A stretch of 38,005 nucleotides of DNA from a bacterium (GCA_050125095.1 JASFEA010000012.1:1-38005); one strand, 5' to 3'; positions 1-31,249 are shown, counted from the first letter of the stretch. Program-made: numbers and translations. The notes: a model not told the origin generated them from the sequence alone.

Positions 1-1
1 C

Positions 2-3000
2 TCCGATACCACGGGTATCATTACCTGCGTGGCCGGCGCGCCCGCGAGGCTCGTAATCTCTCCCGATACCGCCACGGTGACAGCCGGCGCGTCCATTGCT
101 TTCGAGACCTCGACATACGACGCAGACAATAATCCCAGCTCCCCGGTCGCTATTGACTCCTGGGAGGTCTTAGGCGGCATCGGCAATATATCGAGCGAGG
201 GTGTCTTCGGGGCTACTACGGCCGGAACCGGAGCCGTGGCATGTTCGAGCGGCGGCCTCGTCGACTCCACGGGACATATCGTAGTGCTCGCGGACCTGCT
301 CGCCGAGCTCAACGTCTTTCCGGACTCCGTGGACGTCGCCCTCAGCGGGAGCCAGCAATTCACGGCAACAGGCCTTGACGCGTACGGCAACAGCGTCGGG
401 ACGGGCGGTCTTGCCTGGGAGGTTATCGGGGATATAGGTACGATCGACAATGCTGGACTCTTCACGGCCCAGAGTCCCGGGACCGGCCGCGTCGCCGCCG
501 CCAGCGACCTCGGCGGCGTGGTCGATACCAACAGGGTTGTGACGGTGCTTTCCAGCGACCTGGCCTACCTCCTGGTCACCCCCGATACGGCCTCCGTGAA
601 GGTCAGCGGGACGGTGCAGTTCGTGGCGTCCGGGTTCGACGCCGGCTACGAGCCGGTGAGCACGGGCCCGGTAGACTGGGGCGTGCTGGGGGGCATAGGG
701 ACCATCGACTCCGAAGGTGAGTTCACCGCCACCACCCCGGGCGTCGGCTATGTCACCGCCGCGAGTTCCATGACCGGGGCAAGAGACACCACCAACATGA
801 TAGTGGTGGAAGTCCCGACTGCGGCTGAGATCCCGCTCGGCGACAGGATAGTCCACGCGGGAGGCACCATGTCGCCCCTGCTTGCCTTCCGTCTCTCCAA
901 CTCGTTCAATGGGGCGGAAAGCGTCGAGAGCATAACCGTCCGCGACGCTTCGCGCGGGGAAGGCACCGCCGCCCAGGTACGTGCCAATGTAGATTCGCTC
1001 GACGTCTTCGTCGATGCAAACGGCAACTCCTTGCTTGACGGTTCGGATACCTGGCTCGCGTCAAGCGCCTTTCCGGCGGCCGCGACCACGATATCGTTCC
1101 CTCCCTATATTATAGGGCCCGGCTCGAGCCGCATCTTCTTCGTGGCGGCCAGAATAAGCGGATATCCCCGCGACAGGGATTCGCTGGATCTCTACCTCAT
1201 GCCCGACATCGACATCGAAATCGGCGACGGCTCAACCGTGGCAGGTGCCGATACCATAAACTCACTCGGCTACAATATCATCGACGGTCTCATCTCCGGC
1301 CAGGTCGCCCTCACGGCGCCTGAAATCACATCGGTGGCCCCGGGCGAGGGCGGGTTCAACGCCGTGACCATCGACGTCCCCCGGAACGGCTACAGCCATG
1401 ACGTTCTGAACATCCTCTCCGTATATAACTCGGGTACCGCCGATACGCTGGACCTGGATTCGCTTGTCCTGTACAGGGACGCAGGCGACGGAGCGTGGGG
1501 CGGTCCCGGTGCCGAGACCAGAATCGGGGAGCTTTCATTCACCGGAGACCAGTGGGAACTCAGCGGCATAAGCCAGTCCCTCGCAGGTCAGGTAACGCGC
1601 TTCTATCTTGCCGCTGCGGTGGCCGCGGACGCTTCAGACGGCGCCACTCTCTCCTTCGGCATACCGCTGCACGGATTCGAGATGAACTCGACAAATGACG
1701 GCCCCATTGATGCAGCGGTTGATCCCGTGGGCACCATAACGGTGGTGGACGTGGAGGCTTTAAGCGTGCGGGCCGTGAAGATCGCCGCCCGCGAACTCGT
1801 GCCGGGCGGGAGCACGGGACCCGTCGCGGCCTACGAGTTTGTGAACGGGTACGCGCTGGCCGTAGACATAGACGAGATCGTGATAACCTCATATGGCACC
1901 GATCCGGGCGGGGCGGACCCGGGCGATATAGACAGTCAGTTCGGCGACGTTTCGCTCTGGCTCGATCTCGACGGCGACCCCGCACAGCACGGGGCCGCGG
2001 ACAGCATGATCGCGTCAGGTACGCTGTCGTCGGGCAGCGTGGCTTTCGATACATACGGGCTGTCGCTTCCGCCGCACGGCGTGGTCGGGGTCTTCGTCGA
2101 AGCCCATCTCCTGGCGGAGACCGGCAAGAACGCCAATACGGTCAACTTCGGGATAGAGGCGGCGGCGGCCATCGAATCGAGCCCGTCCGTTCTAGTTTCG
2201 GGAGCCTTCCCGGTTAAGAACCCGGAGAGCTTCACGATCAACATATTCCCGGCGTCGCGAGTCACCGTCAACCCTGTTGAGGGGACCACCCTCTACGGAG
2301 GCGATACGGACGGCCTTGTCATGGATTTCAGCCTGCCGAGGAACGGCTACAGCGACGACGTCCTGAAGAGTCTCCGGATCGTAAACCGCGGCAGCGCGGA
2401 GGATGAAGACCTGCTCCAGAACGTGAAGCTGTGGGCGGACCAGGATGCGGCGGGCTTCGCCGGCGCCGACACGTTGCTGGGTTACTTTGCCATCTCAGAC
2501 TCTGCCTGGTCCGTCTCGGGACTCAACTACCCGCTCGACGGCGGGGCCAATCGCTTCTTCATAACGGTGGACGTGGCGCCCCGCGATTTCGTGGGGGGTA
2601 CGCTGAGGTTCGAAATACCAGTGGCCGGGGCGACTTATCTCTCGGGCGCGAACGGACCGGATGACGAGCCGGTCGGCAATACCCAGGCTCATTTCATTCT
2701 GCCGTCCAACCGCATAACCGTAATATCGATTCCGAGGGACGCAGCCAGCGTGCACCCCGGCAGCGCCAATGCCCAGGTGATGACATTCGCGCTTTATAAT
2801 GGATATACAGACCAGGCTCACACTCTCTCGGGAATCAGGTTGTCAAACCACTCCGTCACCGTCTCCGACGGTGAGTTCGCGGACTTTGAGCTCGGCCAGG
2901 TCTCGCTGTATTATGACTCGAACTCCAACCGGGAGTTCGACCGGGATTCGCTGCTTGCGTCGGGTTACTTCAACTCGGGCGGCCTCAGTATGGACGGCCT

Positions 3001-6000
3001 CAGCGTTTCGCTGCCTGCGGAGTCCCTTTCGTACTTCTTCATCACGTCGAAGGTGCCGCTCGGAGTCATAGACGGCGACACCCTGGAGATAAGCGTCGAG
3101 GAGCACTCGGATTTCACCTTCGGAAGGACCGTCAATCTCAACGGCGATCTGCCGCTCACGCGGGGCGGACCCCTGGTGATCGACGGGTCCGTGCGCGCCC
3201 AGTACAGGCTCTTCACGGTATCGGGGCGGACTCTCTCCCCGGGTGACGAATCAGTCACTCTGTTCGCTTTCAGGCCAGCGGTGAACGGCGACCAGGAGGA
3301 CACTCTCACATCGCTCACGATCATGAATGACGGTGACGCCGGCCCCGGCGACATCGGCAATCTGAAGGTCTGGGTGGATGCGAACGACGACCAGGAATGG
3401 CAGGCCACGGATATTCTTGCCGGTGGCCTCACCTATTCGGGTGGATCCTGGACCGTCGGCGGCCTTGAGATAGAAGTGGTTGAAGAAGCGCCGGCCGTTT
3501 TCCTGACGGGCGACGTCAAGATAGGCGCGGTGCCCAATTCGTCATTCCGGGCGGTCGTCCCTCTCGAGGGCTGCGAGTTCAAGTCCGGAAACGACGGACC
3601 GGTGGACGCGAACCTGGTCAGCGAGCAGATGTTTGTGATTTCCAGTTCCGGCCTGAGCATCACCTACGACCTCGGGCAGAGCAAGTACTCCGTTGGACAG
3701 GACATAGACCTCAAGGTCTATGTCACCAACATACTACCGACCCACCTTGAGGACATTTACTGCGATGCGACATTCGCGGGCGTCCCGGGCACGGTGGAGC
3801 TCGACAGCAGCTATGCCGGCCCGGCCAGCCTGGGGTCGGGCGAGACGGCGGAGTTCGACTACTACTATACCGCGGCGGCGCAGGGTGACGCATACTGGCA
3901 ACTCGGGGCATTCTCGACAAGCGTGCCGGAATCGTCGGCCACCGTAGAGACCGAAGTGGTCGAGATACAGACAGTCCCGACCGGGGTGGTTGTCGAGATG
4001 ATCAGCTCGATCCCCACTGCGGTCACAAGGGGCCAGTCTCATGTGTTCCCGCTCAGCGTGAGATACCATCACACGGACGTTTCACCGCTGTGCGCGCCGG
4101 TTCGGCTGGACAGTCTCCGCATACACGTGGAGGACGGCCTCGGCGGGGACCAGGCGGCACGTGATGTTTTTGAGCGGATGGTGCTGGGCGCGGGCTACAC
4201 CAACCTCGCCATCGTGGAGTCCTTTGACTCGGAGTCGTCCGTCCTGCTCGAGTTCGCCGAACCGGCGGTGATCTCCCCGGGAGAGGAGCAGATACTCTCC
4301 TTGAGAGTGGACATAGACAGCACGGCCGCCGCCTCGGCTTTCGCCCTTTCGCTCGGGAGCGAGAGCTCGGTCAGGTTCCATGACAGCAACACCGGCGGGC
4401 ACGTCCCCGTGGATCCCGGCGTGACATTCCCGCTCAAGACCGCATCATGCACCATCAACGACCCCTCGCAATCCCTGGCGGTGTCATATGTGCCGACACT
4501 CTCCGAACACGCCAATTACGGGCAACCGGACGTCTCCGTAATGCAGCTCATACTCAGGCACTACGGGGCGGCCGGCAACTCTCAAATCAAGTTCACGGGG
4601 CTCTCTTTTGAATTCACCGACGCAGGAGGCGCGGCGCTGTTCGCGGGCGACCTCGTGGAGAGCGTTGAGCTCCTCCAGCAGCAGACGCCGCTCGCCGAGC
4701 TCACGTCCTTTACATACGGGGACTCGCTGCTCACGCTATGGCTCACTTCGCCTCTGGTGGTGAGCCCGGGTCACCAGGATACCGTGAGGATTGAGGTCAC
4801 ATTGAAGTCTCAGTCGCAGTACACGGGCTTCGGAGTCACCATAGAAGACAGCAGTCTCTTTGTCCTGAGGGACCTCAGCTCGGGCTCCACCGTCCCCGCC
4901 GTGGGCGACACCGCGGCGGACGTCATCCAGCCGGTCTTCCCCATGACCTCAGGTTATGCAGGACTCAGGCAGCCGGCACGAAGCCCGGAGATCTGTCTCT
5001 CGTCGGGTCTCAACGATGGGATAGTAGCGGGTGATGACTCCGTATCGCTGCTGAGACTTGATCTCAGCTACGATGCGTCGGGAGACTACTCGCCCGTTGT
5101 ACTCGAGTATGTGAAGGTGTCCGTGCTCGACACATTGGGCAGGTCGCTGGATCCCGGCCAGCTTTTCGATCGAATAGGCTTCGCCCTTGCGGGCGGGCAG
5201 GCCCGGTATGCGACATCGATCGAGCTTGAGGGGGGCTATACATTATTCCGCTTCGGCGATGACGGGCTCGAGGTGCCTCCCGGCGGAGAGCTGGCGGTAA
5301 ACCTGATCGGCGACATCGAAGCCGACACTCCATACGACCACTTCCTCATGAGGATACATGGGGCGGGCATGATCGGAATCGCCGATGCCACCGACCCCGG
5401 AGCGAGTCCCGGCTTTGAGGAGGCGCCGGGGTGTGAGGATATCTTCCCGTTTGAGACCGGCAGCGCGAGCATATATCTGCCGGCCGGCACGCCCGAGTTC
5501 GAGGTGATATCCGTAGCCACCCGCATTGGCGCACCCGGAGGGCAGGACCTCAAGGTCTTTGTCGGGGAGCTTACCTATGAAACGGATAGCCCGCAGGGCG
5601 ACCTGGTCCTCGTCAGTATGACGGGCGATGTGCTCAGCAGGACCGGTTCGGGCGATACGCATGTCTCCGCGGCGGAAGTGTTCGACGCCGTCCATCTCAT
5701 GTCGGGCGACGAGATCGTGGCCACCGACAGCGTTCTCACGGGCAGCGGAATTCGGTTGCTTCCGGGAAGCGAGTATGTCATTTCGCGCGGTGTCGAGCAT
5801 ACGCTCGAGATAGTCTGTGATCTCAGCCCCTCGGTCGCCGCGGGCAACTATGTGATTGAGTTCGGCGACGTCGCCTTCATGCGGCTCGCTGACAGGAATC
5901 TGGCTACCGATGTGTACCCGGATCTCGTGGGCGCCGATTTGCCCGTGCGGAGCGCCGAGATCTCCGTGGCAAACGAGGATCTCGCCGGCTCATTCACCAA

Positions 6001-6289
6001 TTATCCTAATCCCTTCAATCCCGCGCGCGGCGAGCATACGACGATAGGGTTTTACATAAGCGAAAGCGCGCGCGTGGACATAGAGATATTCACCGTCACC
6101 GGAGAACTCGTCAAGAAGGTCGCCTGGAATGAGGATAAGTCGGAGGGGCCCCATCAGGATGACACCTGGTCGGGCCTCAATGAAGACGGACTCGGGGTAC
6201 TGCCGGGGACCTACCTTTGCCGGATTACTGCGAGGTATTCATCGGGCAGGACAGAGACCTGTCGAAGGAAGGTAATGGTCATAAGATGA
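2..6289 (+). CDS. Giant (>2090 aa) secreted Ig-like repeat protein with FlgD-Ig/T9SS-type C-terminal domain; 5' end lies outside the window
   Basis: Frame is open from base 2. Three Big_2-like repeats at the N-end (RLVISPDTATV, ELNVFPDSVDV, YLLVTPDTASV). Recurrent Asp-rich loops (FVDANGNSLLD, YYDSNSNREFD, WVDANDDQEW). C-terminus FTNYPNPFNP...IEIFTVTGELVK...WSGLNEDG...PGTYLCRI...KVMVIR at 5993-6289. Confidence 0.85.
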   Translation, partial: SDTTGIITCVAGAPARLVISPDTATVTAGASIAFETSTYDADNNPSSPVAIDSWEVLGGIGNISSEGVFGATTAGTGAVACSSGGLVDSTGHIVVLADLLAELNVFPDSVDVALSGSQQFTATGLDAYGNSVGTGGLAWEVIGDIGTIDNAGLFTAQSPGTGRVAAASDLGGVVDTNRVVTVLSSDLAYLLVTPDTASVKVSGTVQFVASGFDAGYEPVSTGPVDWGVLGGIGTIDSEGEFTATTPGVGYVTAASSMTGARDTTNMIVVEVPTAAEIPLGDRIVHAGGTMSPLLAFRLSNSFNGAESVESITVRDASRGEGTAAQVRANVDSLDVFVDANGNSLLDGSDTWLASSAFPAAATTISFPPYIIGPGSSRIFFVAARISGYPRDRDSLDLYLMPDIDIEIGDGSTVAGADTINSLGYNIIDGLISGQVALTAPEITSVAPGEGGFNAVTIDVPRNGYSHDVLNILSVYNSGTADTLDLDSLVLYRDAGDGAWGGPGAETRIGELSFTGDQWELSGISQSLAGQVTRFYLAAAVAADASDGATLSFGIPLHGFEMNSTNDGPIDAAVDPVGTITVVDVEALSVRAVKIAARELVPGGSTGPVAAYEFVNGYALAVDIDEIVITSYGTDPGGADPGDIDSQFGDVSLWLDLDGDPAQHGAADSMIASGTLSSGSVAFDTYGLSLPPHGVVGVFVEAHLLAETGKNANTVNFGIEAAAAIESSPSVLVSGAFPVKNPESFTINIFPASRVTVNPVEGTTLYGGDTDGLVMDFSLPRNGYSDDVLKSLRIVNRGSAEDEDLLQNVKLWADQDAAGFAGADTLLGYFAISDSAWSVSGLNYPLDGGANRFFITVDVAPRDFVGGTLRFEIPVAGATYLSGANGPDDEPVGNTQAHFILPSNRITVISIPRDAASVHPGSANAQVMTFALYNGYTDQAHTLSGIRLSNHSVTVSDGEFADFELGQVSLYYDSNSNREFDRDSLLASGYFNSGGLSMDGLSVSLPAESLSYFFITSKVPLGVIDGDTLEISVEEHSDFTFGRTVNLNGDLPLTRGGPLVIDGSVRAQYRLFTVSGRTLSPGDESVTLFAFRPAVNGDQEDTLTSLTIMNDGDAGPGDIGNLKVWVDANDDQEWQATDILAGGLTYSGGSWTVGGLEIEVVEEAPAVFLTGDVKIGAVPNSSFRAVVPLEGCEFKSGNDGPVDANLVSEQMFVISSSGLSITYDLGQSKYSVGQDIDLKVYVTNILPTHLEDIYCDATFAGVPGTVELDSSYAGPASLGSGETAEFDYYYTAAAQGDAYWQLGAFSTSVPESSATVETEVVEIQTVPTGVVVEMISSIPTAVTRGQSHVFPLSVRYHHTDVSPLCAPVRLDSLRIHVEDGLGGDQAARDVFERMVLGAGYTNLAIVESFDSESSVLLEFAEPAVISPGEEQILSLRVDIDSTAAASAFALSLGSESSVRFHDSNTGGHVPVDPGVTFPLKTASCTINDPSQSLAVSYVPTLSEHANYGQPDVSVMQLILRHYGAAGNSQIKFTGLSFEFTDAGGAALFAGDLVESVELLQQQTPLAELTSFTYGDSLLTLWLTSPLVVSPGHQDTVRIEVTLKSQSQYTGFGVTIEDSSLFVLRDLSSGSTVPAVGDTAADVIQPVFPMTSGYAGLRQPARSPEICLSSGLNDGIVAGDDSVSLLRLDLSYDASGDYSPVVLEYVKVSVLDTLGRSLDPGQLFDRIGFALAGGQARYATSIELEGGYTLFRFGDDGLEVPPGGELAVNLIGDIEADTPYDHFLMRIHGAGMIGIADATDPGASPGFEEAPGCEDIFPFETGSASIYLPAGTPEFEVISVATRIGAPGGQDLKVFVGELTYETDSPQGDLVLVSMTGDVLSRTGSGDTHVSAAEVFDAVHLMSGDEIVATDSVLTGSGIRLLPGSEYVISRGVEHTLEIVCDLSPSVAAGNYVIEFGDVAFMRLADRNLATDVYPDLVGADLPVRSAEISVANEDLAGSFTNYPNPFNPARGEHTTIGFYISESARVDIEIFTVTGELVKKVAWNEDKSEGPHQDDTWSGLNEDGLGVLPGTYLCRITARYSSGRTETCRRKVMVIR

Positions 6290-8319
6290 TGCGGGTTGCG
6301 GCTGGCATAGTATGCACCGCGGTACTGGCTGCAGGGGCAGCCCTGGCCGGCAATGGCGGCACGGAATCGCCCTTCAGCATGGGGGCGGGCACGCGTGAGC
6401 TGGCAATGGGAAGCGCCGATCTTGTGTATTGCCGGCCGGGCGCCGCGGTTTACTTGAACCCGGCGGCGCTTGCGCTGGCCGAGCGGTACTCGCTCGAGGC
6501 TTTCCACAGCAGCCTGTTCGAGTCGGACGCGGGCTACCAGTACTTCGGTTTCGCCGTTCCCACAATGGACTACGGCAGCTTCGGACTGGGAGTCTTCCGG
6601 CTCGGCATAGACGGCATAGAGAAGCGGGACGCCAGCAACCTATACCTCGGGGATATCTCGGACAGCCGGCTCGGTCTCTATCTGGGCTATGGCCACACGA
6701 TTTCGGGTTACGAGGTCGGGGCGGCCGTTACCGTGGAGCAGCACTCTCCCGATGTCTACAGCGCGACGTCTTCGCCGGGCATAACCCTGTCGGCGGGGCG
6801 CCGTTTTAAGCCGGGCAGCGACAGGTTGCCGGAGGTCGGGGCGATGTTCGTCGCCCGGAATCTGATAAGGCCCAGTATCAAACTTGACGAACAGAGCGTC
6901 ACCTATCCCTATTCGGTCGACGGTGGTTTATCGCTCCAGTTCCTTCCTGCCGGCACCCATGATCATGTCGTCTTGCTGTCGGCCAAGTTAAGCAAAGTCG
7001 AGAACCTGAACGCAAGGGCCGCGTTCGGAGTGGAGTACAGTCTTTATGATTGCGTGGGCCTCCGCGCGGGACTTAAAGACGGTGAGGCCTCATTCGGCTT
7101 CGGTCTCTTCTATAAATATGTGGGCTTCGACTATGCAATGCTCAAGCGCGACCTGGGCACGCTTCATACGTTCAGTCTTACCGCGGGCTTCGGCCTTCCG
7201 ATCAGCCTCAAACGGCGGCAACGCGAGGAGAGACGGGAGGCGGAGTTCAACAAACTGCTCAACCAGCGGTTCGCCGAATCCAACCGGATCATGATAAATG
7301 ACCTGGTTGAGCAGGCGGGGCGCATGGAATCCTCCGGCGATCTTGCCCAGGCGATTACCCTGTATGATCGGGCGTTGTTCCTTGCCGCCGACGCGGGGAT
7401 GGATACAACCGAGATTTCCTGGCGCGCTGTGAAGTCCCGTGAGCGTCTTGAGGTGGAACAGATCAACGCCGCCTACAGGCGGAGTATTGACGATGCCCGG
7501 GCGAGATTCGATTCGGGCGACTTCCTCGGCGCCAGGTACTTCGCGAACCTGGCCCTCTCGGTCAATCCGGATTCCGAAGAAGCTGAGAGTCTTCTCAAAC
7601 GCGCCGACGCCGTTGTCGCCCGGAGCGTCTCCCGGGAGCAGGAGATTGAAAGAGGCCTGATGATGGCCGATTCGCTGGCGAGCTATGGGGAGATCGATGA
7701 TGCGCTGGTTGTGGCGCGTTCGCTCAAGAAAGTGGACAGGGATGATCCCCGCGTTCAGATTGCGATCAGGAAGGCAGAATTCGCATACTGGCAGGATATC
7801 GCCGAGAAGGCCTTTGTGCGGGCCGACTATGGCCAGGCAGGGGCGGCTGTCGACTCGGCGGCGGTCAGGTTCCCGGGCCATCCGTGGATCAAGAATCTGA
7901 ACGGCAGCATCGCGGCCGAGACCGAGCGCAGGAGTCCTGCGGCAGCTCGTCCGGTTTCCGAACCCGGGTCGGAGGTGCAGAGGCCCGCAACTCTCAGTCC
8001 CGAAATGCAGAGAGAGGTGGCGGCCACTTACAAGCGCGGTCAGGACCTGTTTGAGAAAGGCAGGCTCTCGGAGGCCGTTGTTGAATGGGAGAGGGTCGAG
8101 GCGCTGGCGCCGGATCATATGTCCGTCCGGGATTACCTGGTGGATGCCTACAAGTTCCTGGGGGTGGAGCTGTATACGCAGAGCAAACTCAGCGAGGCGG
8201 TGGACGTCTGGAAGAAGGCCTCGCGCATAGCTCCGGACAGCACGGAAATCGAGAGTTATATAAAGCGCACCGAACATGAGATAAGCAAGCTGCAGGAGAT
8301 GTCCTATGACAGACGATAA
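6286..8319 (+). CDS. PorV/PorQ-like outer-membrane beta-barrel fused to coiled-coil and TPR domains
   Basis: ATG at 6286 overlaps the upstream TGA (ATGA). Signal peptide, GAGTRELAMG and YLNPAAL motifs, amphipathic strands ending LGTLHTFSLTAGF, then helical TPR-like repeats (YKRGQDLFEKGRLSEAVVEWERV). Confidence 0.75.
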   Translation: MMRVAAGIVCTAVLAAGAALAGNGGTESPFSMGAGTRELAMGSADLVYCRPGAAVYLNPAALALAERYSLEAFHSSLFESDAGYQYFGFAVPTMDYGSFGLGVFRLGIDGIEKRDASNLYLGDISDSRLGLYLGYGHTISGYEVGAAVTVEQHSPDVYSATSSPGITLSAGRRFKPGSDRLPEVGAMFVARNLIRPSIKLDEQSVTYPYSVDGGLSLQFLPAGTHDHVVLLSAKLSKVENLNARAAFGVEYSLYDCVGLRAGLKDGEASFGFGLFYKYVGFDYAMLKRDLGTLHTFSLTAGFGLPISLKRRQREERREAEFNKLLNQRFAESNRIMINDLVEQAGRMESSGDLAQAITLYDRALFLAADAGMDTTEISWRAVKSRERLEVEQINAAYRRSIDDARARFDSGDFLGARYFANLALSVNPDSEEAESLLKRADAVVARSVSREQEIERGLMMADSLASYGEIDDALVVARSLKKVDRDDPRVQIAIRKAEFAYWQDIAEKAFVRADYGQAGAAVDSAAVRFPGHPWIKNLNGSIAAETERRSPAAARPVSEPGSEVQRPATLSPEMQREVAATYKRGQDLFEKGRLSEAVVEWERVEALAPDHMSVRDYLVDAYKFLGVELYTQSKLSEAVDVWKKASRIAPDSTEIESYIKRTEHEISKLQEMSYDRR

Positions 8320-9913
8320 GCAAAGCGTTCTCGCCGGGGACGCCTGGCCGGAGCCGTCTGAGTTCAAGAAGTCGATACGCCTGGAGTTCACGATGTACGT
8401 GTCTGTCATCATCGTGGTGCTGATGGCTGTTACGGGTTACGTCATCTCCAGCCAGTACGTGAAGACGGTCACCGAGAACGTAGTCGAGAAGCTCGTGGTT
8501 CAGGCGCGATCATACTCCAACCCGGCGGGGAAACTCATCATATCCGAGGACGGTCCCGATGCCCTGCTTCTCAACAACATCTGCAAGAAGCTGGCGGACG
8601 ACAATCCCGACGTTCACTGGGCCGGGATTACAGGGGATGACGGCGTCTTCCTGGCGCATACGGACATCAGGCAGGTCATGAGCGGCGAGAAGCTCAAGCG
8701 GTTCGCCGCCAGCGGATTCTTCGACATACTGCGGCCCGACGAGAGCTTCGCCATAGCATCGGATACGATATACATATCCGTTGGAATACGGGAGAACGAG
8801 GTGAATCTGGGCACCCTGGCCGTTGCGGCATCTGCCGAGCCGATCCTGGGTGCGAAGAGAGCTTCCATACTGACGGTCCTATATATCACGGCTGCCATGA
8901 TCATCCTGGGCATACCGGCGACTATCGTCATCCTCAGACGAAAACTCAGCCCCATCGGCGTGATCACGGATCACCTGAAAGGGGTCGACCTCGAGAACCT
9001 GTCGATTGACATCCCGGTCAGAAGCGAAAACGAGTTCGGCTTCCTTGCCGAAACGCTCCGTGTAATGGGCTCCAAGCTCAATGTCGCCAAGAGGGCGCTT
9101 GTCGACAAGGAGCGAATGGAGAGGGAGTACGAAATCGCCAGGGAGATCCAGGCAAATATACTGCCAAGGGAATACCCGAGTGGAGCGCATTTCGAGATTG
9201 CGGGAGCCTACCGCAGCGCCAAGGAGGTCGGAGGGGACTACTATGATTTCGTCGAGTTTGACGAGAACAGGCTCGGCATACTCGTGGCTGATGTATCCGG
9301 CAAGTCGCTTCCCGGGATGCTCGTAATGCTCATGACGCGCGACATCGTCAAGGAGCTCACGAAATCCTTCATGGAGCCCGAAAAACTCCTGGCGGAAGTC
9401 AACAGACGGCTCCTCCCCAATATCAAGAAGGGCATGTTCGTGACCATGTTCTTCGGGGTGCTGGACCGGAGAGACGGGCGGTTCCGCTATGCTTCGGCGG
9501 GCCATAACCCGCTTGTGGTTCTGAGTCGCGATCTGGATTCAGCGAAGCTGGTCAAGACCAAGGGCTACCCGCTTGGAATGGTCCCGGCAGCCGCGTACGA
9601 AAAGAGGGTGGAGTGCCGGGAGATCACACTGGGAGAAGGCGACTGGCTCATACAGTACACCGATGGCGTAAATGAGGCCCAGGACAGGGCGGGCAACGAG
9701 TTCGGCATGGAGAGATTCGTCAGCATGGTGGAGTCCCACCGGGATCTCGAAGCCGCGGAGCTGGTCGACCGGGTTCTGGCTGAACACGCCGAGTTCGTGG
9801 GAGACGCCCCGCAGTATGATGACATCACGCTATTAGCGCTCAAATGGACGGCACAAGTCGCCGATATGAAGAGGGAAACTGTGGGGAGGACTGCCTATGT
9901 CGGTCAGGGCTAG
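8306..9913 (+). CDS. Membrane PP2C/SpoIIE (RsbU-like) Ser phosphatase with extracytoplasmic sensor and HAMP
   Basis: Two TM segments, HAMP (ENEFGFLA), PP2C motifs VGGDYYDF, ADVSGK, SAGHNP, YTDGVNEA, DDITL. Confidence 0.92.
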   Translation: MTDDKQSVLAGDAWPEPSEFKKSIRLEFTMYVSVIIVVLMAVTGYVISSQYVKTVTENVVEKLVVQARSYSNPAGKLIISEDGPDALLLNNICKKLADDNPDVHWAGITGDDGVFLAHTDIRQVMSGEKLKRFAASGFFDILRPDESFAIASDTIYISVGIRENEVNLGTLAVAASAEPILGAKRASILTVLYITAAMIILGIPATIVILRRKLSPIGVITDHLKGVDLENLSIDIPVRSENEFGFLAETLRVMGSKLNVAKRALVDKERMEREYEIAREIQANILPREYPSGAHFEIAGAYRSAKEVGGDYYDFVEFDENRLGILVADVSGKSLPGMLVMLMTRDIVKELTKSFMEPEKLLAEVNRRLLPNIKKGMFVTMFFGVLDRRDGRFRYASAGHNPLVVLSRDLDSAKLVKTKGYPLGMVPAAAYEKRVECREITLGEGDWLIQYTDGVNEAQDRAGNEFGMERFVSMVESHRDLEAAELVDRVLAEHAEFVGDAPQYDDITLLALKWTAQVADMKRETVGRTAYVGQG

Positions 9914-10679
9914 AAGGACGGTTACCCTTCTTGTACCCCTGGACATTTACGGGGATACTCTTGAGAGCTTCTACGAGGAGCTGCGCGGGCGCTTGAAAGA
10001 GCAGCCCGAGGAAATACGTCTCGACTGCTCGCTTCTGGAGCACGCTACTTCAGCGCACATCAACACCCTCTGGCATGCACAGAGCAAATGCGAGGATGCA
10101 GGCGTGTCCGTCAAGCTCATCTCGGTCACCTACGGGCTTGAGCGAGTGCTTGCCGTCCTCGACCTGCGCGACCTCTTCGTTGTCGAACGCGACGAAGTCG
10201 AGGCGAGGGCCGGGAAGTATCGGCCGGTGCGCGACGAAGAGGCCCCCGACGCGCTGTCGCTGGCGGTGGCGCCCACTGTTGAGGGTATAAGCGAGGGCAT
10301 GCAGTGCCTTCATGACTACCTTCTGGGGTTGAACCATGGGGAGATGTTCGCGTTCGATCTTGAGACGGTCTTCTATGAGGTCACAACGAATATCCGGCTT
10401 CATGGTGATCTGCCTGAGGGCGAATACATAAGTTTTACCGCCGCCGCCCGCAACGGCTCGGTACACCTGTGCTTCGAAGACCAGGGGGCATGTTTCGACC
10501 CGACCAGCCGTAGAATCGATTTCGATCCCCAGAGAGCCATAAGCCAACGGCAGACACGTGGATTCGGGCTGGCGATGATCAGGAAATTGGTGGACGGCAT
10601 TTCATATGAACGGCAGAACGACAGCATCAACACCCTGAATCTCGAGAAGAAGATCAATTGGAATGGAGGGCAGTTCTAA
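9897..10679 (+). CDS. STAS domain fused to RsbW-like anti-sigma Ser kinase (HATPase_c)
   Basis: N-half is STAS-like (IRLDCSLLEHATSAH, LERVLAVLDL). C-half has GHKL boxes EVTTNIRLHG, EDQGACFDP, RGFGLAMIRKLVD. Confidence 0.82.
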   Translation: MSVRARRTVTLLVPLDIYGDTLESFYEELRGRLKEQPEEIRLDCSLLEHATSAHINTLWHAQSKCEDAGVSVKLISVTYGLERVLAVLDLRDLFVVERDEVEARAGKYRPVRDEEAPDALSLAVAPTVEGISEGMQCLHDYLLGLNHGEMFAFDLETVFYEVTTNIRLHGDLPEGEYISFTAAARNGSVHLCFEDQGACFDPTSRRIDFDPQRAISQRQTRGFGLAMIRKLVDGISYERQNDSINTLNLEKKINWNGGQF

Positions 10680-11026
10680 TGATATCAGAGAAGCGACTGG
10701 GCATCGAGACGATAGTCCTTAAACCCGGCAAGGCTCTGGACAACACGAACGCGCATGAAATGACTGAAGCAATATGCAAAGCCCAGGGAGAGGGTTTCAA
10801 GAACATAATCCTCGACATGGAGGAACTGCAGCTCCTGTCGTCCGCCGGCGTGGGGTCGATTCTCGGAACCGTCGAAATCTCGAGGGACATGGGGGGAGAT
10901 ATAGTACTCTGCGGCGCCGGCGACAAGATCGTGCACATACTGGAAGTGCTCGACCTCTGCGACTATCTGACCATCAAGTCCAAAGACGAAGTAGATAAGC
11001 AGTACCATATGCAAGAGGTGAACTGA
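10679..11026 (+). CDS. STAS anti-sigma-factor antagonist (RsbV/SpoIIAA-like)
   Basis: TAATG overlap gives ATG at 10679. IILDMEELQLLSSAGVG carries the phospho-Ser motif. Confidence 0.9.
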   Translation: MISEKRLGIETIVLKPGKALDNTNAHEMTEAICKAQGEGFKNIILDMEELQLLSSAGVGSILGTVEISRDMGGDIVLCGAGDKIVHILEVLDLCDYLTIKSKDEVDKQYHMQEVN

Positions 11027-12672
11027 TGAACGACGTCCCGGAGGGACATGGCCAGGCGACGGCTGTGACGGAAGCGCCAAAAGAGCCTCTCGAGAGGAGG
11101 CTCCTGGCGCTGGACGCGCTTTCGAAGCTCGCCAGGCAGTTCTCCGCAAAACCCGACTTCGAGCATCTCATGAGCGTGCTTCTCATGACGCTGTGCGGGC
11201 AGTTCTCGGTCGGAAATGCGGTGGCCATATTGAAGCGCCCTCATTCGGGCTCATGCGGTCGGACTTTCTTCGCCACCGGGCGGTTCCGGAATAGCAGTGG
11301 ACTCGCCGGGCTGGACATCTCAAGCGAGAGCTGCTCGGCGCTTATGGGCGGGCAAAGCTCATGCAAGCTTAAGGACCTTGACCTGTCCGACAGGCATTCG
11401 GGGATCATCCCCGTCTTGAGAGAGCAGGGCGTAGGCCTTGTATGTCCATTGATTCATGACGACGACCTCCTCGGGATCATCGGAATCGGAGACAGGGTAA
11501 CAGGTAAGGAGTTCGACCGGGAAGAGGTAGAACTGATAGTCGCGATTATTGATACGATCACTCCATTTCTGGCGAACACGTATCTATTCTGGGAAATAGG
11601 CAGGCTGAATACCTGGTATCTGGACATACTGAACAGCGTGAAGCAGGGGGTGTTCGTGTTTGACTCCTTCAACAGGCTTAAGAAGATAAACACAGCCGGA
11701 CTGGATATATACCAGGCCTTCGCCCGGGGTATTTCAGACGCCGGCGAGATCTGTGGGAAGCCCATCGAGCAGGTCTTTCCGCCCCACGCTTTCGGCGGCC
11801 TTGTGCCTGATGTGATGACTTCGAAGATCGCCGGCGGGAGCGCGGGTGCGAAGAGCTTCGTGGCGCGCGGCAAGAATGCGAACCGGGTATACAACCTGCG
11901 TTTGAGCGAGAGCAGGGAGGGTGACGAGAACGGGACGGATCTCATAATGACTCTGGACGACATCACCGCACAGAGAGAGGCTGAGGAGAGGCTCTTTAAT
12001 CTCCAGCAGCTCGCCGACCGCGGTGTTATGGCGTCGGCCATATCCCACGAGCTGAGGAACTTCCTGGGCCTTCTCCTGGGAGGGTTGGAGCTCACTCAGG
12101 TTGCAATTACAAGGGGTGAGGGAGACAAGGCCGATGAGCACATAGACAAGCTCAAATCGACGGTTGAGAACCTCGAGAAGTTCGCATCGGGCCTCATGGA
12201 TTATAATAAGTTCGAAGTTGACAAGCAGACATCAAGCCTCAACGGCGTGATCAGCGATGTGATTTCCTTTATATCGGGCCAGCAGCACTTCAAAGACATA
12301 ACCATCACGGCAGACCTCGACACAGACCTGCCCGAGGTCATGATAGACGCCGATAAGATCGCGCAGCTGCTCCTCAACCTTCTCCACAACGGGGCCGACG
12401 CTATCCTGGAGGCCGGCCGCTCCGACGGCGAGATCATGGTCGGGACGTTCTCGGATGAATCCGAAGTGGTGTTGATCATCTCCGATAACGGCGCCGGCGT
12501 CAGTCCTGATATCAAAGACAGCCTTTTCAAGAAGAGGTTGACCACCAAGAAGCACGGGCATGGCTACGGCCTGGTGACATGTGCGAGCATCATAGAGGGG
12601 CACAATGCTACGGTGACCGTTGACTCGGAGCCAAACGAGGGTTCGGTCTTCACCTTCCGATTCCCCGTATAG
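11026..12672 (+). CDS. Cytoplasmic GAF/PAS sensor histidine kinase
   Basis: TGATG overlap. GAF-like (CPLIHDDDLLGIIGIG), PAS end DDIT, H-box SHELRNFL, N-box NLLHNGADA, DNGAG, GHGYGL. Confidence 0.9.
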   Translation: MNDVPEGHGQATAVTEAPKEPLERRLLALDALSKLARQFSAKPDFEHLMSVLLMTLCGQFSVGNAVAILKRPHSGSCGRTFFATGRFRNSSGLAGLDISSESCSALMGGQSSCKLKDLDLSDRHSGIIPVLREQGVGLVCPLIHDDDLLGIIGIGDRVTGKEFDREEVELIVAIIDTITPFLANTYLFWEIGRLNTWYLDILNSVKQGVFVFDSFNRLKKINTAGLDIYQAFARGISDAGEICGKPIEQVFPPHAFGGLVPDVMTSKIAGGSAGAKSFVARGKNANRVYNLRLSESREGDENGTDLIMTLDDITAQREAEERLFNLQQLADRGVMASAISHELRNFLGLLLGGLELTQVAITRGEGDKADEHIDKLKSTVENLEKFASGLMDYNKFEVDKQTSSLNGVISDVISFISGQQHFKDITITADLDTDLPEVMIDADKIAQLLLNLLHNGADAILEAGRSDGEIMVGTFSDESEVVLIISDNGAGVSPDIKDSLFKKRLTTKKHGHGYGLVTCASIIEGHNATVTVDSEPNEGSVFTFRFPV

Positions 12673-12729
12673 CGAGTATCCTGCCGCGGGCCGACGCTCA
12701 ATCGGCGCTTCGTAATCCCCGGCTGCCTG

Positions 12730-13062
12730 CTATCTGATCATGGTTAGAACCATCTTGAAGGGCGTCACGGCGCGCAGCGCATGCGGCTCGCTGGCAGGCA
12801 TTATGATCATATCACCCTGGCTGAGATTGAAGGGCTTTCCGGAGATCATTATCTCGGCTTCCCCGTCGAGCACATAGACCATCGCGTCGAATGGAGCGGT
12901 GTGCTCGCTGAGACCCTGTCCCCCGGCGAAGGCGAAGACAGTAATGGTGCCGGTTTTCTTGTCTATAACCGTTCTGCTTACGACGGAGCCCTCCTGGTAG
13001 TCCACGAGTTCCGCCATGCTCAGCACCTCTGACAGTGGTGCGGCGCCTGAATCATGGGGCAT
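12730..13062 (-). CDS. Cupin domain protein
   Basis: GQGLSEHTAP and MPASEPHAL cupin motifs; AGGAGG SD upstream. Confidence 0.9.
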   Translation of the reverse strand: MPHDSGAAPLSEVLSMAELVDYQEGSVVSRTVIDKKTGTITVFAFAGGQGLSEHTAPFDAMVYVLDGEAEIMISGKPFNLSQGDMIIMPASEPHALRAVTPFKMVLTMIR

Positions 13063-13091
13063 AGTTTTCCTCCTGATTATCTATATCGATA

Positions 13092-13655
13092 TTACTTAAG
13101 CTGCTTCCGCATTATGGGCCTTGTCGGCGACCTGCGGGCGACTTCCGCGAAGCCGGCGCCTCGGTAGGCCGACACCGGCCCGTGGTAGGCGAAGGTATCG
13201 GGCGTCTTTCCCTTCCTTGGATCGACAGCATAGCCCTCCACGACCTTCGCGCCATTCTTGCGGGCGAAACTCGCCGCGGCCTTCAGCAGCCTGACGCTTA
13301 TCCCCTTCTTGCGGTGGCTCTTCGTTATGAACAGGCAGACTATGGACCAGACGGGCTCGGCATCGACCGGTTTCAATATCCTTGATCTCTCAAGGCGCGG
13401 GAAATGCGAGCGGGGAGCCACGGAGCACCAGGCGACGGCTTCGCCGTCAAGATAGGCTATTATGCCGGGGATCTGTCCCGATTTAACGAGTTTCCGCATG
13501 GCCCTGCGGTTGGGCTCACCCTTGCTGGCCTCGAATTCCTTCGCGCTCAGGCGCCACCACATGCACCAGCAGCCGCCGCAGGCGCCCTTCTCCCCGAAGA
13601 GCGCCTCGAAGTCTTTCCAGGTGTCCGCCGTGAGCGGACGGAACTTAAGCATCAT
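13092..13655 (-). CDS. GNAT N-acetyltransferase with CxxCxC N-terminal motif
   Basis: CGGCWCMWW, WSIVCLFI, HRKKGIS acetyl-CoA motif, VEGY; ATGA overlap with the upstream gene. Confidence 0.85.
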   Translation of the reverse strand: MMLKFRPLTADTWKDFEALFGEKGACGGCWCMWWRLSAKEFEASKGEPNRRAMRKLVKSGQIPGIIAYLDGEAVAWCSVAPRSHFPRLERSRILKPVDAEPVWSIVCLFITKSHRKKGISVRLLKAAASFARKNGAKVVEGYAVDPRKGKTPDTFAYHGPVSAYRGAGFAEVARRSPTRPIMRKQLK

Positions 13656-26009: not shown

Positions 26010-28121
26010 ATGCCAAGGAACAGGAAGGGCCTGGCGGCGGCATTCGCCGTGGCGGCCGTTTCGACTCTCATCGCGGGCCTTGTCATGGCTGCGATACCCC
26101 AGAAAATCAATTACCAGGGGAGGCTTACAGACGCGGGAACGGGTCTGCCCCTTCCGGGCTCCCACTCGGCCGTCTTCAGCATCTACGACGATCCGGTAAG
26201 CGGGTCGCTTCTCTGGACCGAGACGACCTCGGTTCAGGCTGATACCAACGGAGTCTTTGCGGCCGTCCTGGGAAGCGTTAATCCCATAGACATAGACTTC
26301 GACGGCCCGGCGTACCTCAAGGTCGTGATCGACGGTGAGACCCTCGATCCCCGGCGCGAGCTCGTCAGCTCGCCGTATGCGTTTAATGCCATGAACGCCG
26401 AGAACCTGGACGGGCTGCCGGCCGGCGACTACGCCACGGCCGACGCCCTTAGCGGGATCGGCACCATCAATGACCCGTCGAATCCGGTCGACTGGTCGCA
26501 GCTCAAGAACGTCCCGGCGGGATTCGCGGACGGCTCCGACGAGGCCGGTGGCAGCGGGGACGGCCACTCGCTGGACGCGGCGGACGGCGACCCCGTCGAC
26601 GTCGTGTATGTGGACAACACGGGCAAGGTCGGAGTCGGAACGACCATCCCTGAGGAAAAACTCCACGTATCGGGCGACATCCGGCTTGACAGCGGCGGTG
26701 ACATCGCCTTCGGTGACGATAACACCAGGGTATATCACTCGAGCGATGACCTGCACCTCACATCCGAGGATGATATCTATATCAGGCCCGACGATGACCT
26801 CTACATCGGGGTGGACGGCGGCAGTGATTGGGTCCATTTCGACGCGAGCTTCAAGAGACTGGGATTGGGGATTCTCAATCCGGCAAGGGAATTGCAGATA
26901 TATCAGCCTGGAAGTTCGACCTGTTATCTTCAGGTGACCAACACCCCCAGCGGAACCAATAGCACCGACGGCCTCATACTGGGATTGAACGGAGCTGCCG
27001 TCGGCTTCCTTTACAATCAGGAACCGGGGCTGGGGTTATGCCTCGGGACAAGCAACGGGACCAAGCTGTATATAGCCGGTGACGGCGATGTGGCGATCGG
27101 AAACAACAACACGAGCCCCGACCAGAAGCTCGAAGTCGATGGCAATATCCTGGCCGACAGCCTGTTCCTGGGAGAAGGTTCGACCGTTGGCCATCTGGAG
27201 ATCAACTCGGGTGCGGCTTCGGCCCCTATTGTGAAAGCCGATCAGTACTTTACCATGGGCGGGAGAGTGTGGTGTTATGACGAGGCCGGTGGTGGTATAG
27301 CGGGAATGGAAGCCGATTTTAACGGTACCGGCGGCTACCTTGTGGTATCTAGGAGTTCGGGCTATAACGGCTTCTTGGTCGACGGCAATTACAACAACAC
27401 AGGGAACCCGCACATGAGTATCTCCGGTAGCAGCAGGAGCGCCGTCTTTGATATGTCCACCTCCGGGGATAACTCGGTACAGCTTCCCAGTGACGCCATA
27501 TCCGCGCCCGAGCTCGAGGACGAACCCGGCGTCGCGTCCGCGAACCGCGATGGCCCGACCCTGACCCTTTCCACCAGTCCGACTAACATCGAATCGAGAG
27601 CCATAGTCAATCCGGCTGCGGGTTACTGCCTGGTGATAGGGTCCTGCGAGGTTCGGATAAGTCACACGAACGGCACAACCAGCTCTGCGATATTCGGGGT
27701 TACCACGTCCTCTCTCACGCTGCCTGCATCCCAGGACTACAGCCTGTATCTCTCCCCTAACGCTCCGACGGGCATTTATTACTTCCCGGTAACGGTTCAA
27801 TCCATAATTGCTACGTCCACGGGCAGCGACACCTTCTATCTGGTGGGGGAGGTATTTACCGGGAGCTTCTCCGTCTATGAGGCTCAGCTCTCCGTCATAT
27901 ACTTCCCGACCAATTACGGAACAGTGGACCCGCCGGCTCCGGGGGGGCCCACCGCCCCTGAAAATCAGACCGGGACGGCCCTTCCCTTGACGGAGGTCGA
28001 GGAAGAAGCCGAGCGGCAGGAGTCCGAGGCAGCCAACAGGGCGAGGATAGAAGAGGAAATGGCCGAGATGAGAGCCAGGCTTGAAGAGCTGGAGCAGATA
28101 GTCGAGGAGCAGCAGCAATAA
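26010..28121 (+). CDS. Secreted fibre-like (tail-fibre/adhesin-type) protein with C-terminal coiled coil
   Basis: AGGAGG SD, signal peptide, N-domain PQKINYQGRL...PYAFNA, GxVG(I/V)G...P...KLxVxG-type repeats, C-terminal EEMAEMRARLEELE. Confidence 0.7.
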   Translation: MPRNRKGLAAAFAVAAVSTLIAGLVMAAIPQKINYQGRLTDAGTGLPLPGSHSAVFSIYDDPVSGSLLWTETTSVQADTNGVFAAVLGSVNPIDIDFDGPAYLKVVIDGETLDPRRELVSSPYAFNAMNAENLDGLPAGDYATADALSGIGTINDPSNPVDWSQLKNVPAGFADGSDEAGGSGDGHSLDAADGDPVDVVYVDNTGKVGVGTTIPEEKLHVSGDIRLDSGGDIAFGDDNTRVYHSSDDLHLTSEDDIYIRPDDDLYIGVDGGSDWVHFDASFKRLGLGILNPARELQIYQPGSSTCYLQVTNTPSGTNSTDGLILGLNGAAVGFLYNQEPGLGLCLGTSNGTKLYIAGDGDVAIGNNNTSPDQKLEVDGNILADSLFLGEGSTVGHLEINSGAASAPIVKADQYFTMGGRVWCYDEAGGGIAGMEADFNGTGGYLVVSRSSGYNGFLVDGNYNNTGNPHMSISGSSRSAVFDMSTSGDNSVQLPSDAISAPELEDEPGVASANRDGPTLTLSTSPTNIESRAIVNPAAGYCLVIGSCEVRISHTNGTTSSAIFGVTTSSLTLPASQDYSLYLSPNAPTGIYYFPVTVQSIIATSTGSDTFYLVGEVFTGSFSVYEAQLSVIYFPTNYGTVDPPAPGGPTAPENQTGTALPLTEVEEEAERQESEAANRARIEEEMAEMRARLEELEQIVEEQQQ

Positions 28122-28156
28122 TGGCACCCATTGACCATAAACAGGAGGATGGAAAA

Positions 28157-30637: not shown

Positions 30638-30649
30638 GAGGTAATTCGA

Positions 30650-31249
30650 ATGAGGCGCGCGATTTTGGCTGGTACTCTATGCGCACTTGCTCTGGCCGTG
30701 GGGTGCGGGGGAGACGGCGGAGCCGGGCCCGGCGCCACGGCGGAGTCCAGGACCGATGAAGGCTGGGCCCTATTCGAGGCAGGTGATTACACGGGGGCCA
30801 TAGGCAAGTTCAATGAAGCAGTAGCGATAGATGATGAATACGCGGACGCATACAACGGCCTGGGGTGGAGCTTCGCCAAGCTGGATTCCCTTGCAAGGGC
30901 TCTGACCCACTTCGGGAGTTCTATCTCGAACGGCATGACCGGGGACCCCCATGCGGGGCGAGCCCCCGTGTACAGGGACGTTGACCCGCCTGAATTCGCA
31001 AATGCCGTTTCGACGGCGACGACTGCGCTTAATCATGACCGCAGGTACGAGTTCGAACACGATACCGACTTCGACTGGCGGGACCTTCATCTCATAATGG
31101 CGCAGAGCCATTTCGGCCTGGGCCAGTACGATCTAGCCAACGCCGAGGTGGACTCGCTGGGCGGGAACGTGCAGAACCCGTCATCGTCGACGTTCGTTGA
31201 AGACCTTGCGGACGAGATAGAGCGCCTGGAGGGTGTTTACGGTAGCTAG
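30650..31249 (+). CDS. TPR lipoprotein
   Basis: GGAGGT SD, lipobox LAVGC, TPR GWALFEAGDY...AYNGLGW. Confidence 0.85.
   Translation: MRRAILAGTLCALALAVGCGGDGGAGPGATAESRTDEGWALFEAGDYTGAIGKFNEAVAIDDEYADAYNGLGWSFAKLDSLARALTHFGSSISNGMTGDPHAGRAPVYRDVDPPEFANAVSTATTALNHDRRYEFEHDTDFDWRDLHLIMAQSHFGLGQYDLANAEVDSLGGNVQNPSSSTFVEDLADEIERLEGVYGS

Follow-up and report, generated by a model that had tools for sequence, protein, structure and literature searches.

Why should the genes for a giant secreted surface protein and for a PorV-like outer-membrane barrel run directly into the genes of a partner-switching module? The question arises at the beginning of the stretch analysed here, 38,005 nucleotides of bacterial DNA (GCA_050125095.1 JASFEA010000012.1:1-38005), hereafter the window, which is the start of contig C12 in a 3.35-Mb assembly of 268 contigs. 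Six co-oriented genes, g1 to g6, fill positions 2 to 12,672, the first of them being therefore open at its 5' end. Comparison with related loci makes it very probable that the six genes form one functional unit, which looks like a partner-switching system with an outer-membrane, secretion-linked input, a combination apparently undescribed. The genes, and the parts of them that matter here, are as follows.

2 to 6289, plus strand: g1, a giant secreted surface protein, of which the last 2095 residues are present and the 5' end lies beyond the contig start
5984 to 6286, plus strand: C-terminal sorting domain (CTD) of g1, resembling type A of the T9SS (type IX secretion system), with weak matches to TIGR04183 and FlgD_ig
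6286 to 8319, plus strand: g2, 677 aa, PorV/PorQ-family outer-membrane barrel fused to a periplasmic tetratricopeptide repeat (TPR) tail
6379 to 7191, plus strand: barrel of g2, residues ~32-302, 14 beta strands
7201 to 8313, plus strand: TPR tail of g2, residues ~306-676, all-helical, predicted periplasmic
8306 to 9913, plus strand: g3, 535 aa, membrane phosphatase with the order transmembrane segment (TM), Cache-like domain, TM, HAMP, PP2C
8450 to 8866, plus strand: extracytoplasmic sensor domain of g3, residues 49-187, divergent single-Cache-like
9897 to 10679, plus strand: g4, STAS-like domain fused to a serine kinase of the RsbW/SpoIIAB type
10679 to 11026, plus strand: g5, single-domain STAS protein of the anti-sigma-factor-antagonist type
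11026 to 12672, plus strand: g6, 548 aa, soluble GAF/PAS histidine kinase

The original prediction had six co-oriented genes overlapping at every junction, and both the list of open reading frames (ORFs) in the window and the sequence itself agree with it at all five junctions. The g1/g2 junction reads ATGA at 6286-6289, g2 overlaps g3 by 14 nt and g3 overlaps g4 by 17 nt, while g4/g5 and g5/g6 are joined by TAATG at 10677 and TGATG at 11024. A TTG at 6217 was considered as the start of g2 and rejected, all eight aligned orthologues starting at a Met that matches the ATG at 6286. The overlaps recur in other loci: g1 and g2 share 4 nt in 8 of the 8 plus-strand loci with listed ORF ends (L023, L026, L027, L042, L043, L045, L046, L048), and g2 and g3 share 8-20 nt in 14 of 14 loci, with start codons picked by a heuristic. 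The six genes are probably co-translated. A scan of positions 1-13400 predicted 8 terminators, inside the shuffled range (mean 7.5, sd 2.6), and 7 promoters, modestly over it (mean 3.8, sd 1.8), none of the predicted promoter sites in that interval being at a gene start. In one metatranscriptome run, g2 and g3 are matched with an identity of 99% or more by three short contigs of 151, 151 and 233 nt, and a fourth contig gives two 18-nt matches elsewhere; the contigs on g2 and g3 are at most a weak hint of transcription and are silent on co-transcription.

The evidence that carries most weight is the constancy of this gene order. The order g2 to g6 is kept in all 30 complete loci of the six-gene form, which we call type 1, with no exception; 8 more loci are cut by contig ends, and g1 was counted upstream of g2 wherever the DNA is present. 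The complete loci comprise 7 of 7 wider loci from related genomes, 7 of 9 new ones from a scan of species genomes (16 loci returned, 7 of them duplicates; the other two end inside g2), 2 of 2 from a distant lineage and 14 of 20 from a metagenome scan, where 5 are cut after g3, g4 or g5 and 1 ends inside g2. Near-duplicates among the metagenome loci are counted (L099/L100 and L101/L102), and L091 is 98% identical to the window. None of the type-1 loci examined has a different gene after g2, and g2 identity across them goes down to 38%. The carriers are labelled Candidatus Eisenbacteria, Zixibacteria/Zixiibacteriota, Calditrichaeota and 'uncultured Ignavibacteriales'. The genes flanking the unit are not conserved among these loci; 3' of 12672 in the window there are opposite-strand genes unrelated to it (GNAT, nitroreductase, MsrB-like and others). 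Because the identical order recurs in every related locus examined, the six-gene arrangement is far beyond chance.

Co-occurrence tells the same story genome by genome. Of 61 related genomes, 9 have a full-length g2 orthologue (the window's own is included, as are two with the gene divided between contig ends), and full-length g3 orthologues (at least 60% identity, with the alignment starting within the first 12 residues) are found in exactly those 9. The other 52 genomes have PP2C-domain matches or a distant type-2 protein (see below) alone. One Eisenbacteria genome, G008, carries two complete copies of the six genes on separate contigs, C170 (L023) and C62 (L026), in which g2 is 47-50% and g3 61-62% identical to the window.

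Two further architectures, from distant lineages, keep the secretion pair next to a membrane phosphatase. Type 2, in G036, a genome related at the domain level only, starts with an 813-aa protein with a FlgD/CTD-like end and a 608-aa PorV-TPR protein that is 27% identical to g2 and scores 116.8 bits with the PorV_fam model, over its cut-off of 90. A fusion protein with the order RsbW-TM-sCache-TM-HAMP-PP2C comes next, followed by a STAS gene, a GGDEF cyclase and Wza/Wzz-like genes. In the lineage of G036, all 81 sampled genomes have a match at E no worse than 1e-15; cargo, PorV-TPR and RsbW-PP2C keep this order in 28 of the best 30 loci, and the remaining 2 are cut. Among seven wider type-2 loci, STAS and GGDEF genes both follow in four, a GGDEF gene alone (at least 60 bits) in two and neither in one. 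Types 1 and 2 occur together in two genomes of this lineage, and two more divergent type-2-like loci come from metagenomes. In type 3 (genome G056; L153 = G056:C13:8000-24000), a 1921-aa fn3/Ig cargo with a CTD and a GH39_C-like domain is followed by a 1247-aa PorV-TPR protein, a HAMP-PP2C protein, a STAS protein, a stand-alone RsbW and a 779-aa PP2C-RsbW protein. On other contigs, G056 also has PorV-like matches in frames of 1300-1500 aa and two more HAMP-PP2C matches.

The kinase thus has a STAS domain as its fusion partner in type 1 and the phosphatase in type 2, and in type 3 it stands alone. Across the three architectures one trio is constant, namely the cargo, the barrel with its tail and the membrane PP2C, and it is this persistence of the trio while the kinase fusions shuffle that gives the strongest argument for the secretion and signalling halves working together. 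The linkage on which the original prediction depended was found by the synteny check in all relatives and in all three architectures, with the genome-by-genome co-occurrence in addition. The fusion of an RsbW kinase to the phosphatase in type 2 suggests, moreover, that g3 and g4 meet and act together at the membrane.

PorV-TPR proteins also stand beside envelope components of other kinds, and there again their genes come after that of a large CTD cargo. In class A (L032, G028:C31, 4438-13606), a 1594-aa Ig/CHU_C-CTD cargo and a 605-aa PorV-TPR protein precede a 472-aa protein of the MotA/ExbB family and two ExbD proteins, and an ExbB-like gene follows the PorV-TPR gene in 20 of 20 loci of the lineage, one of them weak and cut (L113-L132). 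In class B (L029, G031:C1, 342-16539, minus strand), a 1915-aa FG-GAP cargo, a 357-aa PorV-like protein and a 557-aa PorV-TPR protein are followed by a 650-aa protein with FliG_N/M/C domains and TPRs, a 1439-aa protein and MotA; 17 of 19 loci have a FliG-like gene after the PorV-TPR gene, and the two that remain are cut (L133-L151). As a matter of gene order, this fits a tail that would dock onto an interchangeable inner partner encoded next door. We offer only tentatively the wider idea that PorV-TPR barrels are a general trans-envelope coupling device of bacteria of the Fibrobacteres-Chlorobi-Bacteroidetes (FCB) group, each barrel holding one dedicated T9SS cargo and having its tail plugged into an interchangeable inner-membrane module (a Cache-HAMP-PP2C switch, an ExbB/ExbD-type motor or a FliG/MotA-like set). 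If it is true, the version in the window would signal from the cell surface in a new way: the occupancy of a giant surface protein, or the strain on it, would be turned into serine phosphorylation in the cytoplasm.

The original prediction made the protein starting at 6286 a PorV-type barrel with a TPR tail. Behind a signal-peptide-like N terminus, residues 32-300 of g2 match positions 9-324 of the 326 in the PorV_fam model NF033709, scoring 45.9 bits. Its AlphaFold2 (AF2) model, with a predicted local distance difference test score (pLDDT) of 76, has 14 strands at residues 68-302 and then helices alone at 306-676, so that the protein does fold, in prediction, as a 14-stranded barrel with a tail. 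The top Foldseek matches are both PorV, 8gl6_F (E 5e-10, TM-score against the target 0.61) and 6h3i_F (E 4e-9, 0.59); FadL-family channels are also among the structural matches. The tail has TPR_2, TPR_14, TPR_11 and TPR_1 matches across residues 330-655, and its last ~110 residues are the best-conserved stretch of g2. In an even-stranded barrel both ends face the periplasm, and the tail should therefore be periplasmic. Five other PorV-like matches of the genome lie on other contigs in frames of 296-384 aa, too short for a tail of ~370 residues. Among the clusters of proteins related to g2, 155 in all, no name occurs other than 'hypothetical protein' or 'TPR repeat protein'.

Apart from the weak FlgD_ig and T9SS sorting-domain match at its end, the 2095-residue part of g1 in the window matches no Pfam family, and its body has no internal repeats (BLASTP, E 1e-3) and no sequence match in the PDB. 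The end of g1 also matches the CTD end of the PorU model (E 7.6e-8). Full-length orthologues have 2848-3192 aa; they begin with a signal-peptide-like stretch, continue with a right-handed beta-helix in the N-terminal part and with Big_2 repeats, and then have a conserved body of ~2000 aa without Pfam match; the one in L042 has a hydrophobic, signal-like N-terminal segment, judged by eye, at the place where the window copy is cut. By arithmetic on two DNA pieces, the orthologue in a genome of the same genus has ~3850 aa. The AF2 model of the last 1100 aa (pLDDT 82.9) is all-beta, with beta-sandwich domains strung one after another up to the sorting domain at the end, and Foldseek finds for it generic multi-sandwich matches alone (TM-score below 0.2).

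The genome around g1 encodes the translocon and the sortase of a T9SS: the SprA model exceeds its cut-off (501 bits summed), and PorU reaches 542 bits, where 420 would suffice, and is directly followed by a PorV-like gene. The GldM model has no match in this genome, and none in any control genome either, which makes it uninformative. A CTD profile grown from the end of g1 matches the C termini of 161 ORFs of the genome (ORFs of at least 150 aa). For a 3.35-Mb genome, 161 is a very large set of T9SS cargo, and contig C5 alone accounts for at least 6 of the 12 best matches. Because the genome has a PorU with its own PorV-like gene, SprA and these 161 CTD ORFs, g2 is an extra PorV paralogue placed beside one cargo among many.

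The phosphatase g3 gives 161.9 bits with SpoIIE at residues 319-514 and has a HAMP domain at 214-258; its PP2C motifs GGDYYD, DVSGKS, TDG and DDIT, with the metal-binding Asp, are invariant in 14 sequences. Hydrophobic stretches read from the sequence at ~28-48 and ~188-210 flank a domain of ~140 residues that is highly conserved among orthologues. Searched alone against Pfam, this sensor domain has no match; hhalign aligns it with the corresponding domain of the type-2 phosphatase (probability 88.7%, E 2.5e-6), which in turn matches sCache_3_2 (E 4e-5). A prediction of a 1:1 complex of the g2 tail (residues 304-677, 15-row alignment) with the g3 sensor (49-188, 14 rows) gave, without controls, a score of 0.00, which by the rule of the method speaks neither way on binding. 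Since Cache-HAMP proteins are dimers, the 1:1 stoichiometry of that prediction may have been wrong. At the other face of the membrane, g3 residues 1-27 (window 8306-8386) form a strongly conserved cytoplasmic motif, WPEPSxFKKSIR, with W14 and P15 invariant, and the fused RsbW kinase of type 2 occupies the position of this motif. Because of that fusion point, the motif could be a docking site for g4.

The switch proper is made of g4 and g5. In g4 a STAS_2 match (residues 13-103) is joined to a kinase domain (152-249; HATPase_c_2, 44.3 bits), and profile matches in the PDB agree, the N-terminal half matching a STAS protein and the C-terminal half anti-sigma F factor/SpoIIAB and RsbW. The ATP-binding boxes E161/N165, D195xG197 and G222xG224 are invariant in 15 sequences, as is Ser52 (15 of 15), which was placed at the acceptor position by eye. 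The STAS protein g5 (STAS, 50 bits) matches SpoIIAA (1th8_B) with E 2e-17 in the profile comparison; its SSAG aligns to the DSSG of SpoIIAA, with Ser55 (codon 10841-10843) at the first Ser, the phospho-acceptor position, and neither S54 nor S55 varies in any of 16 sequences. As for g6, it gives 72.6 bits with HATPase_c and weak GAF, PAS_7 and HisKA matches, is AtoS-like over residues 196-548 and has no hydrophobic segment at its N terminus. H341 (codon 12046-12048) lies in the H box, and H341, N451/N455, D487xG489xG491 and G511/G513/G515 are invariant in 15 sequences. The domain matches thereby bear out the predicted CTD cargo, the inner-membrane phosphatase with an extracytoplasmic domain, the STAS-RsbW and STAS proteins and the kinase. 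The proposed switch module stands; the sixth gene encodes a histidine kinase, not a Ser/Thr kinase, and the sigma factor expected of such a module is not part of the conserved unit: there is none among the six genes or their conserved neighbours, no genome-wide search for targets having been made.

How, then, might the two halves be coupled? Our model is one of outside-in signalling, and we give it a roughly even chance. It starts from what the comparisons above show, namely which domains there are, catalytic and acceptor residues that are intact, a strict linkage and a co-occurrence across genomes; from these observations we infer that g2 binds g1, that the TPR tail contacts the sensor domain, that the signal runs inwards and that g6 is the output. 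The giant protein g1 would be exported by the T9SS through its sorting domain. At the outer membrane g2 would receive or hold it by the CTD, as PorQ does for PorZ and as SprF-type barrels do for their own cargo, and the ~370-residue tail would reach into the periplasm and make contact with g3 at its Cache-like domain, either directly or across the peptidoglycan. A loaded, an empty and a strained barrel would then differ in the PP2C activity that they set through the HAMP domain. In the cytoplasm, g4 would phosphorylate g5 at Ser55, and probably also its own STAS domain at Ser52, while g3 would remove the phosphate; the free or bound state of the STAS and kinase partners would set the activity of g6, which would signal to a response regulator encoded elsewhere. 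A direct relay from the TPR tail to the sensor domain is plausible, and among several ways of coupling the two halves a relay through the tail is the most likely.

The best surviving alternative, which we still consider improbable, is that the link is one of regulation only. The phosphatase would sense a small molecule in the periplasm, the switch and g6 would control the expression or secretion of g1 and g2 or a wider adhesion or biofilm programme, and the TPR tail would serve secretion or anchoring, by contact with the translocon or with peptidoglycan, with no role in signalling. Regulators are, after all, commonly encoded beside their targets, the sensor domain is Cache-like, and the type-2 unit has a GGDEF cyclase for its output, with Wza/Wzz genes of polysaccharide export behind it, much as is reported of such biofilm regulators as SiaABCD. 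A TPR protein, SprE, is moreover known in the T9SS translocon according to the excerpt available of PMC10994853. However, such adjacency is rarely so strict as here, with no exception in 30 complete loci, three architectures and an exact co-occurrence in 61 genomes; g2 and g3 overlap in each of the 14 loci compared (by the heuristic starts), and the tail-less PorV paralogues are not the ones that stand beside phosphatases.

A second alternative reverses the direction, and we hold it to be very unlikely. Cytoplasmic signals would enter through the GAF/PAS kinase and the switch and act through the periplasmic domain of g3 on the tail, so that the barrel keeps or releases g1, for which the control of LapA retention by LapD/LapG would be an analogue. 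The presence of a cytoplasmic GAF and PAS sensor kinase, the resemblance of the cargo to a giant adhesin and the c-di-GMP cyclase in the type-2 unit would all suit such inside-out control. Against it, known proteins of the TM-sensor-TM-HAMP-output type signal from the outer domain to the cytoplasmic enzyme, the PP2C is such an output enzyme with its catalytic residues intact, and no periplasmic protease or other effector is found among the genes of the unit. Just as unlikely is import and sensing in the manner of a polysaccharide utilisation locus, where the g1 beta-helix would cut a polymer, the FadL/PorV-like barrel would admit the product and the g3 Cache domain would bind it: the right-handed beta-helix domains that begin full-length g1 orthologues as in polysaccharide lyases and hydrolases, the glycoside-hydrolase-39-like domain of the type-3 cargo, the FadL-family channels among the structural matches of the barrel and the Cache-like sensor are outweighed by the best structural and profile matches being PorV and not FadL transporters, by cargo bodies that are wholly different in types 1, 2 and 3 around a constant core of barrel, tail and phosphatase, and by a TPR tail left without a role.

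The outside-in relay has its own difficulties, and the following observations weigh against it. All the organisms are uncultured and all the evidence is comparative. The family assignments at the outer membrane are below curated thresholds: the g1 CTD scores 19.4 bits with TIGR04183 (cut-off 23) and 20 bits with FlgD_ig (cut-off 27), and the 45.9 bits of g2 are to be set against the NF033709 cut-off of 90. When the g1 CTD was compared by BLAST with the 161 genome CTDs and with 37 type-2 cargo CTDs (L088, L090 and L104, which are really type-1 loci, being left out), 7 of the 37 outscored all genome CTDs; type-2 cargo CTDs are thus weakly closer to it than ordinary ones, a difference too weak for a special class of CTD. 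Small molecules are the usual ligands of Cache-like domains, so that the signal sensed by g3 may be another than the g2 tail. At the other end of the pathway, no receiver domain or response regulator was found in the unit or in the 13 ORFs examined downstream of it or next to it in 9 related loci, and with neither a sigma factor nor a response regulator in or beside the unit, it is only by its adjacency that g6 would be the output. The N-terminal region of g6 has no detectable homology to that of the type-2 GGDEF protein (hhalign probability 3.8%), and types 1 and 2 thus show no shared docking domain that would support the last gene as the direct target.

Elsewhere in the window, positions 26010-31249 (plus strand) hold a second possible cargo group, consisting of a 703-aa ORF without Pfam family, an 838-aa fn3/DUF4959 protein and a 199-aa TPR protein. 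The 838-aa protein ends in a FlgD_ig/Por_Secre_tail sorting domain. A 469-aa triple-PAS and HisKA ORF with no ATPase domain detected (33626-35035, minus strand) faces, head to head, a hybrid histidine kinase of 889 aa with GAF-GAF-PAS domains and a receiver domain (35312-37981, plus strand).

Partner-switching systems are known with cytoplasmic or inner-membrane inputs, and T9SS carriers are, to our knowledge, known as secretion parts only. In the unit described here a T9SS carrier and a partner switch are joined, and in several candidate phyla from sediments and wetlands they have stayed so; the unit has a fair chance of standing for a new class of trans-envelope coupling. Should the tail indeed transmit the barrel's state, this would be the first signalling route starting at a T9SS carrier and a second solution, beside the TonB-dependent transducers, to the problem of reporting outer-surface events to the cytoplasm, and the unexplained TPR tails of 14-stranded barrels, those of Treponema pallidum included, would gain a role that can be put to the test. 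The tail, the sensor domain, the STAS proteins and the kinase are small enough for study in vitro without culturing. The view that no described system has such a layout agrees with the literature, where our search, with most subscription journals outside it, found no paper joining PorV or the T9SS with partner switching or describing PorV-TPR fusions, and none linking the T9SS and Zixibacteria. The string 'PorV2' in the excerpt of PMC10994853 was set aside, the '2' being a reference superscript.

It remains to place the unit among known systems. Its switch has in common with RsbU/RsbV/RsbW and with SpoIIE/SpoIIAA/SpoIIAB a PP2C phosphatase, a STAS antagonist with a phospho-serine and a GHKL serine kinase with intact ATP boxes. 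SpoIIE is membrane-bound, and so is g3. Three of the four defining features of partner switching are therefore present, while the fourth, a sequestered sigma factor, is not in the unit. Unlike these two systems, it has a kinase that carries its own STAS domain and a phosphatase with a periplasmic Cache-like sensor and a HAMP domain, and it is fixed to a T9SS cargo-barrel pair and a histidine kinase. SiaABCD of Pseudomonas aeruginosa (the HAMP-PP2C protein SiaA, the kinase SiaB, the switch protein SiaC and the cyclase SiaD) is likewise reported to combine a membrane HAMP-PP2C with a kinase and a small switch protein and to have an output other than a sigma factor; type 2, with its GGDEF cyclase, comes near it in logic though not in family scores. 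The SiaA model gives 44.3 bits for g3 and 61.7 bits for the type-2 phosphatase, both below its cut-off of 700, and the SiaD model gives 144.9 bits for the type-2 GGDEF cyclase, below its cut-off of 290. The unit in the window differs from SiaABCD in ending in a histidine kinase, and we know of no outer-membrane partner of the Sia system.

On the side of secretion, PorV is a carrier whose extracellular loops bind type-A CTDs, according to the available part of PMC10994853. According to the excerpt of PMC10202324, which mentions no TPR tail or switch, PorV-like barrels that serve a cognate cargo (PorQ with PorZ, PorP/SprF with type-B cargo) have their genes next to that of the cargo, and an uncleaved CTD may be what keeps the cargo on them. 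Like these proteins, g2 is a 14-stranded PorV-like barrel beside one CTD cargo, in a genome with SprA and PorU; in contrast to them, it adds a periplasmic TPR tail of ~370 residues and a fixed link to signalling genes, and it scores under the family cut-off. The same two-part architecture is found in three FadL-like proteins of Treponema pallidum, which have been modelled as a 14-stranded barrel with a periplasmic, helical, TPR-containing C-terminal extension and, within the part of PMC8407342 that deals with them, have no function assigned and no cargo gene or PP2C switch mentioned. The treponemal tails, as they appear there, differ from that of g2 in being short helical bundles. The Treponema family model PF03687 weakly matches the barrels of type 2, of class B and of one further locus of G056 (G056:C28, L031).

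In the TonB-dependent FecA-FecR-FecI system, a barrel in the outer membrane uses a periplasmic domain to tell a regulator in the inner membrane whether it is occupied. Its parts are others: a 22-strand barrel with a plug, an N-terminal signalling domain and an output through an anti-sigma factor and an extracytoplasmic function (ECF) sigma factor, none of which is among the domain matches of our unit, which has a C-terminal TPR tail and a PP2C switch. Its logic is nevertheless the same as that of the proposed relay, and FecA-FecR-FecI is the closest analogy for the system as a whole.

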